Origin: a virus
Taxonomy: Duplodnaviria > Caudoviricetes
DNA: 64,000 nt
Reading direction: 5' to 3' (one strand)
IMG/VR virus record: IMGVR_UViG_3300028920_000023
The notes below the pieces were generated by a model. It was not told the DNA's origin, made no database searches, and was given only the letters and a program-made list of their open reading frames with translations. This document shows, in pieces, positions 3,557 through 42,032 of this stretch; the first letter of the stretch is position 1, and every line of letters starts with the position of its first letter. A program made the translations under genes and the position numbers.

Positions 3557-6069
3557 ACCGACTCGGGATCTGTAGTTGAACAGGCATCGGGAGGCAAACA
3601 CATCCTATAAGTAACCGAGATAACACCAGTAATCCTACCAGGTCTTCTAACAGAATCCCAAAGACCAGCAAGAACGACCGCATCAACAGGCTCATCTCCA
3701 CTCTGATCATCACCTAAAATATTGATATAATGATCAAGCTTGATGTACTGTGTCAATGGATCAATATTATTGTCGTCATCCCGACCACCCGGATTATTAG
3801 CCTCCAGCCCATTGGTTACCGAAGTCACAAAATCCTGCACGTCACGAGTTATATACCTACCATCCCTAACAACCTGAGATCTAGTCAACAGATTACCGGC
3901 ATCATCATACTTATACTCATCATACAACGGAGGCGGATTCGCAGTACGATCACCATCCGGATCCACATGTGCACCATCAGGCCAAACATTACCCTTCGTG
4001 GAGACCCTAGCTATAATCCTCTTATGCTGAGAATCCAAAATCTCATAAGCATCACCAACAGCAGGACGATCAGTACCATCACCAAGCGTAGGCCAAGGAC
4101 GACGCAAAATCAAAGTATCAGAAGTATTATCACGAATAGTCCTACTAACACCAGCGAAAGCACCATCAACCATCGTAACCCGATAACCATTATTAGCAGG
4201 AAAATCCCCACCATCATCATTATCGCGTTCACGCCACTGACCAGCAACCCAAGACTGACCAGAATCAATCAAATTACGCCTAGTAGAAGCAACCTGAGTA
4301 ACAGTCCCAGAACCATCCGCAGGAGGACCATCCGGAGTAGTAGAAGACAAAGCCGTCAAACTATCACTCAAATTATTATGAATCGTATGACCATCACCAC
4401 GAAGATTATCCCTCTTATTCTCATAAGGTTCCCGATCACCAGGCCACTCCTGACGAGTAGACCTATTAGACACCGGATCACCCTGACGACGCTCAAGCGT
4501 AACCAAATCGAAAGTATAATAATTCCTCAAAGAATACTCAGCATTCGAAGAATTACGCGCAACACGAACAGCCGCAGTCAAATCCAACAAATACATATTC
4601 ACAGCCTGCCTATGAACCTTCACAGGCGTCAAATACTCATAATCCTTATTAATATTACCACGGAACTGCTGAGTATGACTCCTGCCAATAATAGGAACAG
4701 TCAACTGGAAAATATCAACACTCACCCACGCCCCAGTCTCCAGCGGGTCTAAAGAACGAACAACATCCGGATCATAATACCACTGAATATTCCTAGAAGT
4801 ATCAAACCAAACCCTACAATCCGGAACAGCCGCATTAGAATCCCCAGAAGTAGCCGGAATCTCAGGACAATCACGCTGAACACAAATAGCAGACTCACCA
4901 CCAACCGAAACCGGCAACCACCCAGTATTACCACCATCATTAAACACCTTCACCCACAAAGTATCATTCTCAGTGGGCTCATCAGAACCAACCGCATCAC
5001 CACTACTCCGACCATAAATCGCACCAATCGGAGCATAAACATAACCCTCAGGACTACCAGCACCAAACTTTACATTGTCGCCAGTAACGAATCCAGAAAT
5101 ATTAGCAGTAGCATTTCCAGGAGCATTAGCAGCATTACTAACACTCCCAGCGATAATATGATTCGTAGCAACCACATCACCATAGACATCCAAACCCTCT
5201 TTAGAAAAAATGCCACGAACACCAGGACACTCACCAGCCTCGCCCGTATAAAACCTAATCGTCCCATCAGAAACCGTATCACCATCAACCCGCAACTCAA
5301 TAGCACAAGAACCATGCGCAGTAGGAGAATCTATACCACACTCAGCAGTCTCCTGAAACTGCACATTCTGACTAATAAACGAATGCTCAGAATCATCACC
5401 AGAAAAACCAACCATAGACTGAAAACGACCAAAAGTCTGACCCGACTGAACACGATACTCACGATTGCCACCAACGCTATCTAAATAAACATCCCCACCA
5501 GAAACCCACAACCTATTACCAAGACCACTAGAAACCTCACCAGTACCAATAAGAACATTACCCTCAGAATCACCACGCATCAACTCAGAAATAACACCAT
5601 CAGAATCCGTAGTAGCAAACTGAATATAACCAGACTTATCACCATCAACATCATTCTCCTTACGACCAGCAATAGTAGCAAAAGCAAAAGCCGAATAATC
5701 AGACTCAGCAGAACGACCACTAAACCTCAACTGAGGGCCAACATCCTTAGCAGGACAATTACAACTAATAAGACGAATATTACCAGCCAACTCACCAGAA
5801 TCAACAACATCAGATTCTAACTGGAAACCAGCACTACTACGATAAATCTTCTGGCCAAAAATCTCAAACTGATCTGAGTAAGTATCTACAAAGACTTTCT
5901 CAGTAGAACCCGTACCACCCCTGGAAATACCCAGAGGCTGGTCAGAATCCGCAATGGCATTAGTCAGAGCTAACTGATAAGCCTGTTCAGCCTTATCCGC
6001 AACCTCTTGGATAAGATCCTCATAACGCCTAATCCCATCACGACTATTCTCGCCCATAATCACCCCCAT
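3553..6069 (-). CDS. large (838 aa) putative virion/tail-fibre-related protein
   Basis: Long ORF rich in Gly/Ser/Asp/Thr and beta-type segments, with a WFDTSRNIQWYY segment of the kind seen in fibre proteins. The function is inferred. Confidence 0.5.
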   Translation of the reverse strand: MGVIMGENSRDGIRRYEDLIQEVADKAEQAYQLALTNAIADSDQPLGISRGGTGSTEKVFVDTYSDQFEIFGQKIYRSSAGFQLESDVVDSGELAGNIRLISCNCPAKDVGPQLRFSGRSAESDYSAFAFATIAGRKENDVDGDKSGYIQFATTDSDGVISELMRGDSEGNVLIGTGEVSSGLGNRLWVSGGDVYLDSVGGNREYRVQSGQTFGRFQSMVGFSGDDSEHSFISQNVQFQETAECGIDSPTAHGSCAIELRVDGDTVSDGTIRFYTGEAGECPGVRGIFSKEGLDVYGDVVATNHIIAGSVSNAANAPGNATANISGFVTGDNVKFGAGSPEGYVYAPIGAIYGRSSGDAVGSDEPTENDTLWVKVFNDGGNTGWLPVSVGGESAICVQRDCPEIPATSGDSNAAVPDCRVWFDTSRNIQWYYDPDVVRSLDPLETGAWVSVDIFQLTVPIIGRSHTQQFRGNINKDYEYLTPVKVHRQAVNMYLLDLTAAVRVARNSSNAEYSLRNYYTFDLVTLERRQGDPVSNRSTRQEWPGDREPYENKRDNLRGDGHTIHNNLSDSLTALSSTTPDGPPADGSGTVTQVASTRRNLIDSGQSWVAGQWRERDNDDGGDFPANNGYRVTMVDGAFAGVSRTIRDNTSDTLILRRPWPTLGDGTDRPAVGDAYEILDSQHKRIIARVSTKGNVWPDGAHVDPDGDRTANPPPLYDEYKYDDAGNLLTRSQVVRDGRYITRDVQDFVTSVTNGLEANNPGGRDDDNNIDPLTQYIKLDHYINILGDDQSGDEPVDAVVLAGLWDSVRRPGRITGVISVTYRMCLPPDACSTTDPESV

Positions 6070-6099: not shown

Positions 6100-6387
6100 C
6101 TAGAATAAAACACCCTCATTATCGATACACATAACATCCCGATAATCAATAAAAGCATAATCTGCACGATGTGGATCCTTCCTATCCGGCTCAATAATAT
6201 GGACAGGACAATGAAACTCAAAATAAGGACCCTCCTTATTAACCAGGATCCTATCACCAACCTCCAAACCAGAGACACCGCAGCCAATACCGACCACGGT
6301 GCCTCTAGAAGCATCTCCCTCTGATTCAAGCCTAATCAAGATATACGAGCCATAAGGCTTAACGGGCAATTCATTCTTCATCTTCAT
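6100..6387 (-). CDS. groES: GroES/Cpn10-like protein lacking the mobile loop
   Basis: VKPYGSYILIR...GTVVGIGCG...LEVGDRILV...FIDYRDVM follows the GroES pattern (iKPL.DRVLV..G.VVAVG.G..VkVGD.Vl..i..eDIL). Confidence 0.65.
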   Translation of the reverse strand: MKMKNELPVKPYGSYILIRLESEGDASRGTVVGIGCGVSGLEVGDRILVNKEGPYFEFHCPVHIIEPDRKDPHRADYAFIDYRDVMCIDNEGVLF

Positions 6388-35722: not shown

Positions 35723-35772
35723 TATCAAAGTTGTTGCTCTTTTCAGAAGTAAATAAAAGAAAGGAGCAACTT

Positions 35773-37140
35773 ATGCCATCTGGAAAAAAGATTAATTGGT
35801 CTGCATATGATGATTTAATACGTATAGAATTACCAAAAACCACAATCGCGTCATTCCGCAATAAATTCTTAAAACATATCTCAGCAAAGGCTATAGGGGC
35901 CAGAGCCAGAAAATTAGGTATAAAACCAGCTAAAAAGTCAAAGCTGGACGAAAGACATAAGAAGACAATATCAGAAAGCTTGATGAAAGAAACACCAGAA
36001 TTAATAAACAAAATAAAAGAATTACGAGACAGGAATTCAACAAAGGAAATCGCCAAGATACTGGGATGTAGCATATCTCTGGTAAACCGAATAATCAAAA
36101 GACAGAACATTAAATTAAGTAAGGAAGGAAAAATAAGAGTCAGAACACAAATTAGTAGTAAACAAAAAGGCAAGATTCCATGGAATAAAGGCATGGAAAT
36201 GCCCCTAGAGTTCAGAATAAAGGTGGCCATATCAAGACAAAAACAATCTGGAAGACTCTCCAAAATACAACAATCTTTTTACAGAACACTAGATGAATTA
36301 GGGGTTAATTATTTAGAAGAAACTAATGAGAAATGTAGATTTGGGCCGTGGACTTTCGATTGCAGAATAATAGAACCGGGGTATGATATTCTGGTCGAGG
36401 TCCAGGGTGGGTATATCCATTCCTTACCGAAGAACATTCATAAGGATGAAGCTAAAGCGACCTATATGAGGAGATATTTCCCAGACATACCGATAAAATA
36501 CATTTGGGAACATGAGTTTGGCGCGGCCAATAGGATCAAGATGAAGGTCCTTCAATGGATAGGCAGGAGAAATATAGAGCAAGTTGATTTTAATTTCAGG
36601 GATGTTACAATTTCCTATATTGAGACTAGTGAAGCGCGAGAATTTGTATCTGCTTTTCATTATTTGGAGAAAATGGTCGGAAAGACATGCATTGGGGCGA
36701 AATTAGGGGACAAAATTATTGCGGTGTCAGTATGGGGGGCACCTACGAGATATGAGACTGCATCTAGATTAAATGTCAAATTAAACAGATGTTTGGAGTT
36801 ACGTAGGTTTGTGGTTCATGATGCATATCATAAGAAGAATTTTGCATCATGGTTTTTGGCTAGGTCAATACCATTGTTACAAGGTCCAGAAGTATTGGTT
36901 AGCTTTGCAGATGTTGGCTTTGGCCATCATGGTACGATTTATAAAGCGAACAATTGGGAGTATGATGGAATGACGGAACCATCATATTTTTATATTGACC
37001 AGGATGGGTATGTGATATTAAAGAAGACATTATATAATCAGGCACGTAAGATGCATATGACTGAATCGGATTTTGCTGAGACATATAATTACAGGAAGGT
37101 ACCAACACCAGGAAAGAAACGGTTCATAAAGAGGTTATAA
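35773..37140 (+). CDS. fusion: DNA-binding region, PD-(D/E)XK/Vsr-like endonuclease and Mom-like GNAT-fold DNA-modification domain
   Basis: IPWNKG (NUMOD3-like); FDCRI...LVEVQGGYIH...KDEAK...IWEHE (Vsr/DUF559-like); EAREFVSAFHYL...LELRRF...SWFLARS...LVSFAD...GHHGTIYKANNW (Mom-like). AAGGAG RBS before 35773. Confidence 0.75.
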   Translation: MPSGKKINWSAYDDLIRIELPKTTIASFRNKFLKHISAKAIGARARKLGIKPAKKSKLDERHKKTISESLMKETPELINKIKELRDRNSTKEIAKILGCSISLVNRIIKRQNIKLSKEGKIRVRTQISSKQKGKIPWNKGMEMPLEFRIKVAISRQKQSGRLSKIQQSFYRTLDELGVNYLEETNEKCRFGPWTFDCRIIEPGYDILVEVQGGYIHSLPKNIHKDEAKATYMRRYFPDIPIKYIWEHEFGAANRIKMKVLQWIGRRNIEQVDFNFRDVTISYIETSEAREFVSAFHYLEKMVGKTCIGAKLGDKIIAVSVWGAPTRYETASRLNVKLNRCLELRRFVVHDAYHKKNFASWFLARSIPLLQGPEVLVSFADVGFGHHGTIYKANNWEYDGMTEPSYFYIDQDGYVILKKTLYNQARKMHMTESDFAETYNYRKVPTPGKKRFIKRL

Positions 37141-37805: not shown

Positions 37806-37843
37806 CTACTTTTGTTTTTTCTGTTATCTGGTATGTATCGTAT

Positions 37844-37997
37844 GTGGTGGTTCTTTGACAATCTAGTCCTGTGGGTTTTCAGGCTACACGGTCGCCTAGA
37901 GATTATCCAGAAGTGATAATCGAAGATGAACCATGGGGTTCCGCCCAGCACGCATCACCCACAGGAATGCTTATCCCGCGTGTGTACGGGCGCGTGG
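37844..37997 (+). repeat. 154-bp block (structured leader plus first repeat), copy 1
   Basis: Identical to 38464-38617 (offset 620 bp). Confidence 0.92.
37867..37966 (+). ncRNA. candidate tracrRNA/omegaRNA-like scaffold, copy 1
   Basis: A 10-bp closing stem TCCTGTGGGT/ACCCACAGGA encloses hairpins AGGC/GCCT, GATTATC/GATAATC and GAACC/GGTTC, plus a possible anti-repeat CGCCCAGCACGC. Confidence 0.65.
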
Positions 37998-38407
37998 CCA
38001 GGGGAATTGGCCGTCCGCACTAGTTTAGAACCTATCCCGCGTGTGTACGGGCGCGTGGTCGGACAATCATCGGCCTGATATATGTTCCGCGTGCGTACGG
38101 GCGCGTGGCGTGAGCGCAACCGTCCAGAACCACAGTGTTTGGTCCGCGTGCGTTGGGCGCGTGGAAAGTCCCGAATGATGCCCACCCGTTCCTCCGGTTT
38201 GGTCCGCGTGCGTATGGGCGCGTGGGAAAATATGCATCAGAAAGGCGTTTCTCGTCAGTTTGGTCCGCGTGCGTACGGGCGCGTGGCAGAGCCAAACAAC
38301 GGGACACAGAAGAATGCCATCTGATCTGCGTGTGTACGGGCGCGTGGACAGGACAAAAAAGAGCCACGGAAGACAGCAGTTTGGTCCGCGTGCATACGGG
38401 CGTGTGG
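37969..38407 (+). CRISPR. CRISPR-like array A: 8 repeats, 7 spacers (32, 21, 28, 32, 32, 32, 31 nt)
   Basis: Consensus repeat GTTTGGTCCGCGTG(T/C)GTACGGGCGCGTGG (29 nt), with a conserved 3' 22-nt hairpin core and unique spacers. Confidence 0.9.
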
Positions 38408-38463
38408 TATGGTGGATTTATCGAGTCACTTTCATCTTTTGGATTGTCTGGTATTCCGTAGTC

Positions 38464-38617
38464 GTGGTGGTTCTTTGACAATCTAGTCCTGTGGGTTTTC
38501 AGGCTACACGGTCGCCTAGAGATTATCCAGAAGTGATAATCGAAGATGAACCATGGGGTTCCGCCCAGCACGCATCACCCACAGGAATGCTTATCCCGCG
38601 TGTGTACGGGCGCGTGG
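38464..38617 (+). repeat. 154-bp block (structured leader plus first repeat), copy 2
   Basis: Identical to 37844-37997. Confidence 0.92.
38487..38586 (+). ncRNA. candidate tracrRNA/omegaRNA-like scaffold, copy 2
   Basis: Same stems as copy 1. Confidence 0.65.
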
Positions 38618-39318
38618 GACAAAGACGAAAAGTGAATAGGTATTCTCACACCTATCCCGCGTGTGTACGGGCGCGTGGCTTGGCTCCTGTTACTGAGAGC
38701 CAAACTAAGACTCGGGCCTCACCGTTTGGTCCGCGTGTGTACGGGCGCGTGGAACCCTGGACCCGTACAGTACTTCAGCGCGTTGTTTGGTCCGCGTGTG
38801 TACGGGCGCGTGGGAATGCTGAGAGACAGAGGAAATGGCACTGGAGTTTGGTCCGCGTGTGTACGGGCGCGTGGAGGTCTTGCTGATCTGTAATGGGAAG
38901 CCATCTGTTTGGTCCGCGTGTGTACGGGCGCGTGGGAGATCCCGGTCGCGGGTGGTCCGGCAGGGTAATGTTTGGTCCGCGTGTATACGGGCGCGTGGGG
39001 TCGATGGTTGTCCTGCTTCGTTTTAGCTCAGTTTGGTCCGCGTGTATACGGGCGCGTGGCTGGCAGACCTCATCTGGTCTTCCTGCAAAGCGTTTGGTCC
39101 GCGTGCGTACGGGCGCGTGGTGAGGCCAGGGGTATTATCCAAGCATTCCAAAGGGTCCGCGTGCGTACGGGCGCGTGGGTAGACGAGGCCGCTAAGGATC
39201 TGCCCCGCGTGGAGGCCGCGATCGAACGTAATGACCCAGGCAACTGTCCAGCGTGTGTACGGGCGCGTGGCTCCTTCAAGAACCCATTGGTCTGTCCCGC
39301 GTGCGTACGGGCGCGTGG
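38589..39318 (+). CRISPR. CRISPR-like array B: 12 full repeats plus 1 collapsed repeat; spacers mostly 32 nt (range about 19-45)
   Basis: Same repeat; period about 61 bp; degenerates toward the 3' end. Confidence 0.92.
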
Positions 39319-39337
39319 TATGGTGGATTTATCGATC

Positions 39338-39418
39338 GCGGGGACATGGCATGGCCGCTGGGACCGGGAAAGCGCGCCCGGCTCTCGAAGTGAGGTTCGA
39401 TTCCTCCGCCCTGCACCA
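39338..39418 (+). tRNA. tRNA-like element with a non-canonical anticodon arm
   Basis: Acceptor-like stem GCGGGGA/GCCCTGC plus A-CCA end; T-loop GAGG-TTCGATT-CCTC. The central hairpin CCGGG/CCCGG has an 8-nt loop that does not fit the anticodon consensus. Confidence 0.4.
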
Positions 39419-39513: not shown

Positions 39514-41211
39514 ATGGCCAAGAAGAAAGACACACACGCACACACAGAACATTACTACGTCAGCATCAAAGACCCCACAAAGGAACAGACATATAACAAC
39601 AAAGGAGAACCAGAAAAAGACACAGAACTATACGAGCAAGTAATGACAGATATTCGGATGTACCGCAAAACAACACAAAAACTAGGCGCATTCTATCTAG
39701 TGCACCTCTTCGCCACAGCCCAAACAGACCTAGATAACCTCGCAGAACAAATCGACAAAAATGAAGCACTCGACGTAATGCGAGAATCACTAAGATCCAA
39801 CGTCAAACGACTACTAGGCAAACAAGACAGACTCGACGAAGCCCTCCAAGAAGCAGAAGTAGCATTCACAGAAGCCTGTATCGACCTAGAAACAGCAGGA
39901 GAAGTAAAACCAACACAAAAACAGAAACTAGAAGCAGCTGTACGCAAAGCCGAGAAACAATACGAACAAATCAGAAAGAAACACCCAACAACCGCCATAC
40001 AAGACGCAGAAGAACAAGTCCAAAAAGCCAAAGCAACCTACGCCAAAACCAAAACCAAAGACGACCTCGAAGCGCTCAGGAACGCAGAAACACGCCTCAG
40101 AGGAATCAAGAAAAGAACCGAAGAAGAAGCACGCAGAATCGAAGCACTACGCCAAAATGGCAAGATATTGACAGTCAAAGAAACAGAAAGAGCCTACATC
40201 CACGGCTACCTGATGCCAGAATGGAAGCCGTTCATAGCCGAATCCATCACAAGCACAACACGCGGCATCCTACACAGAATCATGGGCTCCAAAGACCCAG
40301 AAATAACAAACCTGCCCAGAGAATACCTAGCAGCCAACGGCGTAAGAGGCACCCCAGAATTCAAAGAAATCGGAATAGAAATCAAGAACACCGAATATAG
40401 ACCCACAGAAGACGGATTTGGAATATTAACAGAAATACGCAAAGGACAACCAATAGAACTAAGATTCTATAGAAAGAGAAGAAAAGGCAAGAAAATGAAA
40501 ATGGACCCACACAAATTCTTTATACTCAAGAAACTAGGATTCATACCAAACCAAAACGGAGAAAGAAAAGCCGACTGGAAACCAGGAACATGTTTCCTCA
40601 CAACAGACCGTCAAGGAAAACGCCTAGCAATAAGACTAACCTACACCAGACCAAACAAACAAAGAAACCTAAACCCAGACCGCACAATGCGAGTAGACTT
40701 CCACGAAGACCTATATAACAAAGACAAATACATGTGCATGCACATGGAAAGCGGCTTCCTACCAACAGACAACGTCAGCTACCTCGCATCACTAGACCAA
40801 GTCAAAAACACAACATGGTCCTCCAAAACCATGTACGAAGACATGCGAGGACTAAACCAACAGAAACTCGAAATAGAACAATTATGGAGAAACAAAAGCA
40901 CTAACAGGCACGTAAGAGAAAGATTATCCAAAAGGAAACAGAACCTACAAAAGAGACAAACCGGAACCCAAAGACGATGGCGAGGAACAATAAACCAAAC
41001 CATCCGCAAACAAGCAGAAAGATGGAACTGTGGCAAAATCATAATGGGGCACCTACCAGACAAATTCTATGGCTTCCCATGGCCACAAAGTAACTTCAAG
41101 CTAGCCCTAACATCCAAACTCAAAGAATACGGAATACAAATCACCTGGATAGACGATGTCAAGGTAGGAAAAACCAAAACAAAACGCAAAAAAGAACCCG
41201 TCTGTCTCTAA
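39514..41211 (+). CDS. TnpB/Cas12-like (type V-like) RNA-guided effector, predicted nuclease-dead (565 aa)
   Basis: WED-like segments (PEFKEIGIEIKN; GTCFLTTDRQGKRLAIRLTY); RuvC-I-like LNPDRTMRVDF; bridge-helix-like segment; RuvC-II-like QAERWNCGKIIMGHL; WPQSNFKLALTSKLKEYGIQITWI; adjacent to the arrays; AAGGAG RBS. Confidence 0.75.
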   Translation: MAKKKDTHAHTEHYYVSIKDPTKEQTYNNKGEPEKDTELYEQVMTDIRMYRKTTQKLGAFYLVHLFATAQTDLDNLAEQIDKNEALDVMRESLRSNVKRLLGKQDRLDEALQEAEVAFTEACIDLETAGEVKPTQKQKLEAAVRKAEKQYEQIRKKHPTTAIQDAEEQVQKAKATYAKTKTKDDLEALRNAETRLRGIKKRTEEEARRIEALRQNGKILTVKETERAYIHGYLMPEWKPFIAESITSTTRGILHRIMGSKDPEITNLPREYLAANGVRGTPEFKEIGIEIKNTEYRPTEDGFGILTEIRKGQPIELRFYRKRRKGKKMKMDPHKFFILKKLGFIPNQNGERKADWKPGTCFLTTDRQGKRLAIRLTYTRPNKQRNLNPDRTMRVDFHEDLYNKDKYMCMHMESGFLPTDNVSYLASLDQVKNTTWSSKTMYEDMRGLNQQKLEIEQLWRNKSTNRHVRERLSKRKQNLQKRQTGTQRRWRGTINQTIRKQAERWNCGKIIMGHLPDKFYGFPWPQSNFKLALTSKLKEYGIQITWIDDVKVGKTKTKRKKEPVCL

Positions 41212-41237: not shown

Positions 41238-42032
41238 ATGGCCACCAAACTAACGCTAACACTGAACGACATCAAAACCAAACCAATCGAAAAACTCGCA
41301 GCCAAAGCTGCCGATAGAAAAGAAATAGACACCAACGAATGTGCCACTATCAAAGAAGTATTCGTACAGATCGCCGACCAACACAACGACGATCTAGAGA
41401 AAATATCCGTATTCCTACCACTGCTATCCAGAACACAAATGAAAGAATTATTCGAAGTATTGAAAAGAAACACCAATATAACCTCAAACTTCCTAAGAGC
41501 ACTACAATGTTACGGTCAAAACTTCACGCCAGTGGACTACGAATATAGAATGGCAGGGCACCTTGTATTCGGAATCAAAAACGGATTCGACGTAAACAAA
41601 TGGAAGACACTAGACACCCAAACAAGAGCAAGACTGAACAACCCAAACGAAATAGTGACCGTACTAAACAACAAACACACACCCGAACAAATACAAATAA
41701 AAGACCTAGACGGATGGAGGATGGACCTCCTAGTATCAAAAACAGGCATCCGAGGCATAGAATGCCAAAAGAAATACCTCTGCACCAAAAACGTAAAAAA
41801 GAAACTACCGAAAGCAACAAACGGGAACATCAAGACCCTAGCCAGATCAGACCCAGAAGATCACAGCTTGCTAGAAGCTGTGGCGGACAAGAAACGCCAC
41901 GAAGTGCATACAAATAGCTGGGTCATCATGTCCGCAAGCGGACACGCCATACTAGTAACAGAACAAGAAATGAAAACAATGTTAAACGAGAATTACTCAG
42001 TAGTCCTAAGGCCCAGACCAAAATCAGCCTAA
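41238..42032 (+). CDS. hypothetical protein (264 aa), probably co-transcribed with the effector
   Basis: 26 bp after the effector stop, with an AGGAGG RBS; no recognisable motif. Confidence 0.8.
   Translation: MATKLTLTLNDIKTKPIEKLAAKAADRKEIDTNECATIKEVFVQIADQHNDDLEKISVFLPLLSRTQMKELFEVLKRNTNITSNFLRALQCYGQNFTPVDYEYRMAGHLVFGIKNGFDVNKWKTLDTQTRARLNNPNEIVTVLNNKHTPEQIQIKDLDGWRMDLLVSKTGIRGIECQKKYLCTKNVKKKLPKATNGNIKTLARSDPEDHSLLEAVADKKRHEVHTNSWVIMSASGHAILVTEQEMKTMLNENYSVVLRPRPKSA

Follow-up and report, generated by a model that had tools for sequence, protein, structure and literature searches.

Two CRISPR arrays in the genome of this giant phage hold different spacers and end in the same 17 nucleotides, raising the question of whether this terminal sequence is a guide kept for a target, a signal acting in cis, or a remnant of how the locus was built. 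The 17-mer, TATGGTGGATTTATCGA, lies on the plus strand at 38408–38424 (copy A) and 39319–39335 (copy B) of the 64-kb window, the whole stretch of DNA analyzed here. Each copy directly abuts a terminal repeat, that of array A at 38379–38407 and that of array B at 39290–39318. A search of the window at ≤3 mismatches returns exactly these two matches, with a chance mean of 0.26. As the original prediction stated, the sequences part right after the 17-mer, with GTCAC following copy A and TCGCG following copy B, and in array A this is where the second duplicated unit starts. Both arrays and both 17-mers are present letter for letter in an independent JGI assembly, and array B with its 17-mer is found in the ENA and Logan assemblies. 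The independent assemblies agree, which rules out an assembly artefact as the source of the two copies and confirms that an identical 17-nt sequence follows the last repeat of both arrays. We read this sequence as the trailer-end relic of a tandem-copied unit, perhaps used as an incidental extra guide, and put the probability of this reading at roughly 60%.

Two tandem units upstream of a Cas12f-like gene

The locus consists of two tandem units, each composed of an upstream flank, a 125-nt tracr-like scaffold, and an array with a 61-bp period, which stand before the gene for a RuvC-dead, C-terminally truncated Cas12f-like protein and a conserved partner gene, all on the plus strand. The upstream flank of unit A (37808–37843), a likely promoter region, contains a TCTGGTAT island followed by a 9-nt variable gap and the scaffold. 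The flank of unit B (38428–38463) begins 3 nt after copy A of the 17-mer; the gap between island and scaffold is kept in length between the units, but not in sequence. The scaffold RNA of unit A (37844–37968) is identical to that of unit B (38464–38588) and has a predicted fold of −40.5 kcal/mol, with a 10-bp closing stem (37867–37876/37957–37966) and three hairpins. The identity between the units forms a 154-nt tract that runs from the scaffold through the first repeat, to 38617 in unit B. Within the scaffold, a 12-nt anti-repeat-like segment (37942–37953, second copy 38562–38573) is predicted to form a duplex of −18.6 to −22.8 kcal/mol with all 20 repeat cores, and the two terminal repeats, at −20.5 and −20.2 kcal/mol, are predicted to pair as well as the others.

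Array A (37969–38407) contains eight repeats of 29 nt and seven spacers, mostly of 32 nt, and array B (38589–39318) contains 12 repeats and, near 39199–39213, a partial one that has collapsed. The arrays have no spacer in common, and the longest word common to their spacers is 10 nt. A 10-mer, AGAGCCAAAC, is common to spacer 6 of array A (38287–38318) and spacer 2 of array B (38679–38723), and part of it is complementary to the 5′ end of the repeat. The repeat folds at −11.8 kcal/mol on the plus strand versus −4.6 kcal/mol on the minus strand. This fold, the neighboring protein with a Cas12f fold, and the pairing of the terminal repeats with the anti-repeat bear out the proposed repeat-then-spacer order, which places the 17-mer in a guide slot. 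A minus-strand reading, with the 17-mer as a leader-anchoring sequence, was rejected in view of plus-strand folding, repeat variants that keep G-U pairs, and the decay of scaffold-distal repeats in related loci. We also rejected the possibility that the unit B tail makes up the first half of a 32-nt spacer with a decayed repeat behind it, since such a repeat aligns no better than shuffles (p = 0.48).

A tRNA-like element (39338–39418, plus strand) follows unit B, and in the window only unit B. It has a canonical T-loop, the only such motif in the window, an acceptor-like stem, and an encoded CCA, with no valid D or anticodon arm. Neither ARAGORN nor Rfam calls it at normal thresholds, and it is called only at a relaxed score. 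Eight related loci show no such element behind their arrays. The predicted fold allows the CACCA at the 3′ end of the element to pair with the TGGTG in the 17-mer.

The gene at 39514–41211 encodes a 565-aa protein with 67 distant relatives and no Pfam match. In a search with its structural model (pLDDT 84), the top 20 Foldseek matches are all Cas12f or dCas12f, with E-values of 4.5e-11 to 4.3e-10 for the top matches. An alignment of 61 sequences shows no conservation of the acidic residues of RuvC-I and RuvC-II, and most family members end within ~25 residues of the last RuvC-II strand. From the lost acidic residues and the stop after RuvC-II, we infer that the effector binds DNA without cutting it, as described for dCas12f, which uses guides of 14–16 nt (PMC13472631). 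The marks of type V-F are thus only partly present: the Cas12f fold appears in the model, and a putative tracrRNA with anti-repeat next to a CRISPR array in sequence and prediction, but an intact RuvC D-E-D triad and a TNB zinc finger were not found in the family. Downstream, a 264-aa partner gene (41238–42032) has a homologue behind the effector of locus L006 (E = 2e-5). Partner homologues stand behind dead Cas12f genes in four other loci (L006:2470–3207, L016:6546–7271, L017:3175–3777, and L008:5636–6253), and the 264-aa protein aligns with those of L008, L016, and L017. It has no match in Pfam, the Atlas, or the PDB, and its structural model is only moderately confident (pLDDT 65).

The same architecture recurs in related loci: a scaffold, an array of 61-bp period, the effector and, often, the partner. 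The nearest relative is L006, with 32% protein identity, a homologous repeat, and two scaffold copies homologous to that of unit A; a longer anti-repeat is seen in L008. On a 548-kb phage contig, L016 carries two homologous scaffolds and arrays with two different 29-nt repeats, both of 61-bp period (L016:4050–4990 and L016:7280–7915). The arrays of L008, L015, L016, L097, L101, and L102 follow the 29 + 32 nt geometry that is usual for type I-E, and those of L019 and L105 have ~32 + 34 nt. No cas1 was found among the called genes of the family loci examined, which suggests that host adaptation machinery is used. In L018, duplicated 141-nt elements (L018:1–141 and L018:1631–1771) flank a family member that lacks a visible array and may be a single-guide form.

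The trailer end and the duplication junction

Array polarity can be read from the relatives. In L016, L101, L102, L105, and L097, repeats have decayed at the scaffold-distal end, so the scaffold side is where the arrays grow and the 17-mer lies at the trailer. Trailers are known to remain stable while inner spacers are lost or added (PMC8047081), which would explain why the two arrays match at their ends and differ inside. The conserved trailer, or anchor, ends described in that review resemble the present case in that the last repeat and its flank are fixed while inner spacers turn over, and terminal repeats there carry polymorphisms. Here, the two ends differ from those examples in being tandem copies within one phage genome, with a tail cut at a duplication junction.

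This junction is visible when unit B is slid onto unit A by 620 bp. Positions 38428–38454 are then identical to 37808–37834 at 20 of 27 sites, ungapped, and the full flanks (38428–38463 and 37808–37843) at 20 of 36; the match has a permutation p < 5e-5 in fixed register and p = 0.0075 as a best local alignment. The homology ends at 38428, and only 6 of the 17 sites of the 17-mer itself agree with the upstream DNA aligned to it. Because the flank homology of unit B starts 3 nt after copy A, the point at which the two tails diverge is the duplication junction, and 17 nt need not be a functional length. The original prediction had offered a shared processing or termination signal as one explanation of the 17-mer. 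This loses ground here: the 3′ boundary is explained by the junction, no terminator-like fold is present, and the sequence is absent from the array ends of related loci.

In the history we propose, an ancestral unit of upstream flank, scaffold RNA, array, and tail would have been duplicated or homogenised in tandem, with the copy ending right after the 17th base, where the sequences now part. Spacers would then have been gained at the scaffold end and inner spacers lost through recombination between repeats, a turnover assumed from known array behavior. Such arrays would keep matching ends only, scaffold and first repeat on one side and last repeat and tail on the other, around insides that now differ. 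Since both terminal repeats are intact, transcription probably extends into the tail, which may load on the dead Cas12f as an extra guide.

The substitution pattern bears on how surprising the identity of the two tails is. The terminal repeat cores differ at two of 22 sites, both CpG transitions; core B equals the consensus and core A carries both changes. All five types of point substitution in the 22-nt repeat cores of 37969–39318 are CpG transitions, and the 17-mer has one CpG, which makes its identity less surprising. The scaffold has ten CpGs with no change between the units, a sign that the unit was copied or converted recently. Deamination of methyl-cytosine would produce CpG transitions, as would selection for G-U pairs. 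The window also contains a Mom-family gene, at 35731–37140.

Three points count against a relic. The 17-mer is identical at 17 of 17 sites, more than the left flank at 20/27 (Fisher p = 0.023) or at 20/36 (p = 0.0005), and unremarkable beside the terminal repeat core at 20/22 (p = 0.31), all three comparisons being post hoc; a relic thus needs a left flank that is older than the copied tract or evolves faster. Two arrays without a common spacer take time to arise. The length of 17 nt is also close to the 14–16 nt of dCas12f guides (PMC13472631).

Conservation, targets, and alternative readings

The 17-mer is absent from 12 array ends of L006, L008, L015, and L016, where the best agreement is 6/17, and from the array ends of L097, L101, L102, and L105. 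The 98 kb of family loci contain a single match at ≤3 edits, against 1.07 expected from shuffled 17-mers. The three units of L008 and the two units of L016 have scaffolds in common within each locus, but not tails. In L016, a DUF2283 gene ends in a sequence resembling the 17-mer, which was rejected as being at chance level. With no match at related array ends and matches at chance level in the family, a fixed tail is not a feature of this family, whose nearest member by sequence has only 32% protein identity. Closer relatives by repeat, scaffold, or protein were not found, in collections that also do not contain this phage, so these blanks say little, and comparing the array with GenBank phages gave chance-level matches only. 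The original prediction held that a tail neither conserved in related loci nor present in processed RNA would be only a relic of the duplication; of these two, the lack of conservation stands, at the remote distance of 32% protein identity.

A target for the tail was sought in the 64-kb window, GTDB, and IMG/VR, with ~82% of the phage outside the window (the longest contig with the neighboring protein is 354,787 bp). In the window outside the arrays, there is no 8-nt seed match to the 17-mer and nothing above 12/17. The seeds of all 20 guide slots match the window no better than chance, which gives no sign of self-targeting by any guide, and a complete 208-kb relative genome shows no clear self-target. 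GTDB contains 76 exact matches versus 69 expected, scattered over taxa and genes and with no common flank, and IMG/VR contains seven unrelated viral matches, none near an array or effector. Within the window, the matches in the phage genome that the original prediction proposed to look for were not found above chance. A special pairing of the tail with the scaffold was also rejected, being within the range of other spacers. In L101, spacers at 5598–5660 and 6115–6146 contain textbook promoter boxes (TTGACA; TGnTATAAT), a sequence hint that guides may aim at promoters; the complete 208-kb genome contained no self-target.

How do other explanations fare beside these results? We consider it unlikely, though the strongest of the alternatives, that the tail is a lineage-specific fixed terminal guide: the repeat plus 17 nt would be processed and loaded on the dead Cas12f, which would always bind at the same site (a promoter of the phage or a gene of the host), and selection would have kept the guide in both units so that only a junction sparing the whole guide survived. 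The guide-slot position, the intact predicted scaffold pairing of both terminal repeats, the excess conservation over the left flank, and a length near that of dCas12f guides (PMC13472631) all suit this explanation, as does the finding that type V terminal repeats can yield working guides (PMC6610086). In unit B, the tRNA-like element, 2 nt downstream, could set the 3′ end, but unit A has no such element. The terminal repeats also carry no common special mark, and the absence of the 17-mer from related array ends and of any target in the sequence searched, given the empty seed search of the window and the scattered, chance-level GTDB matches without a common flank, tells against the conserved privileged guide originally suggested. 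A shade more doubtful is the fuller scheme in which a constant 17-nt guide in each array would keep a non-cutting complex of Cas12f and partner always on one promoter or host gene, with the tRNA-like element setting the 3′ end of the guide, and the variable spacers and fixed guide doing two jobs.

The same excess conservation could reflect a cis signal rather than a guide, with the tail acting as a 3′-end, processing, or promoter element in DNA or RNA, which we regard as improbable. The repeat end and tail together read TGn-TATGGT, resembling an extended −10 box that would serve the tRNA-like element and effector gene, or scaffold B. This TGn-TAnnnT pattern is present at both copies, and TGGTAT recurs in the conserved island that precedes each scaffold. 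With the repeat end fixed, however, only three bases have to agree for the pattern to appear (1 in 64), and the window contains TGGTAT 67 times. At the tail, which has no hairpin of its own, neither a terminator-like nor a sigma-70 promoter-like site is called, and the ends of relatives are different, that of L015 having a hairpin and a T run. Finally, the tail might fold back onto the terminal repeat and so silence an extraneous guide by keeping it from forming. Cas12a and Cas13 arrays are known to block extra guides in this way (PMC6610086, PMC13187072), and the predicted fold of unit A pairs the tail with the 5′ arm of the repeat and breaks its hairpin; unit B, however, keeps the normal hairpin and several ordinary spacers pair back equally, leaving this the least credible reading. 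Our preference remains for the trailer-end relic, and nothing shows that the 17-mer sequence was chosen for a target.

Comparison with known systems

CRISPR-associated transposons of type V-K carry a delocalised short homing guide, and an I-F3 transposon study has reportedly described an atypical terminal guide. The 17-mer resembles such homing guides in being a short fixed sequence next to a repeat, with a nuclease-dead effector beside it, and differs in having no marked repeat, no attachment-site match, and no conservation across the family. The guide is not conserved across related elements (L006, L008, L015, L016, L097, L101, L102, and L105), and the terminal repeat is neither atypical nor truncated, its cores being consensus (B) or carrying two CpG transitions (A). 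None of the ten neighboring ORFs (34.6–50.2 kb) has a Pfam family of the TnsB, TnsC, or TniQ transposition genes. The 17-mer fails these three marks of homing guides. For the fourth, a PAM-adjacent conserved target, the search covered the window, GTDB, and IMG/VR, where no match rose above chance.

Closer parallels are found among type V systems. In type V-A, a terminal repeat can give an extraneous crRNA, and Cas12a terminal repeats are usually mutated to block this (PMC6610086). The arrays described here share the repeat-then-spacer order that makes the post-repeat sequence a potential guide, and a terminal repeat that is competent by predicted pairing stands before non-array sequence; they differ in that both terminal repeats retain the parts that pair with the scaffold. 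The effector resembles natural nuclease-dead dCas12f, including an array-associated cluster (PMC13472631, PDB 9n9c), in its Cas12f fold, lost RuvC residues, C-terminal truncation, tightly linked partner gene, and expected short guides. In contrast to those systems, it is phage-borne, with a separate tracr-like scaffold and 29 + 32 nt arrays, and no efflux-promoter target was found. It shares the dead, C-truncated Cas12f of dCas12f-sigmaE systems, but an adjacent ECF sigma factor gene was not found, and the partner has no sigma-factor match in Pfam or in Foldseek with its pLDDT 65 model.

On the present reading, the 17-mer is an ordinary part of array anatomy, a case of known array behavior, and its value is that it fixes the polarity of the locus, with the scaffold as the growing end, and its duplication history. 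If it were a selected guide, it would point to the natural target of these putative non-cutting Cas12f-partner systems of phages, which is the chief question that they raise. The dead-Cas12f module around the 17-mer, a little-studied non-cutting Cas12f-like system, is a more unusual object than the 17-mer itself.
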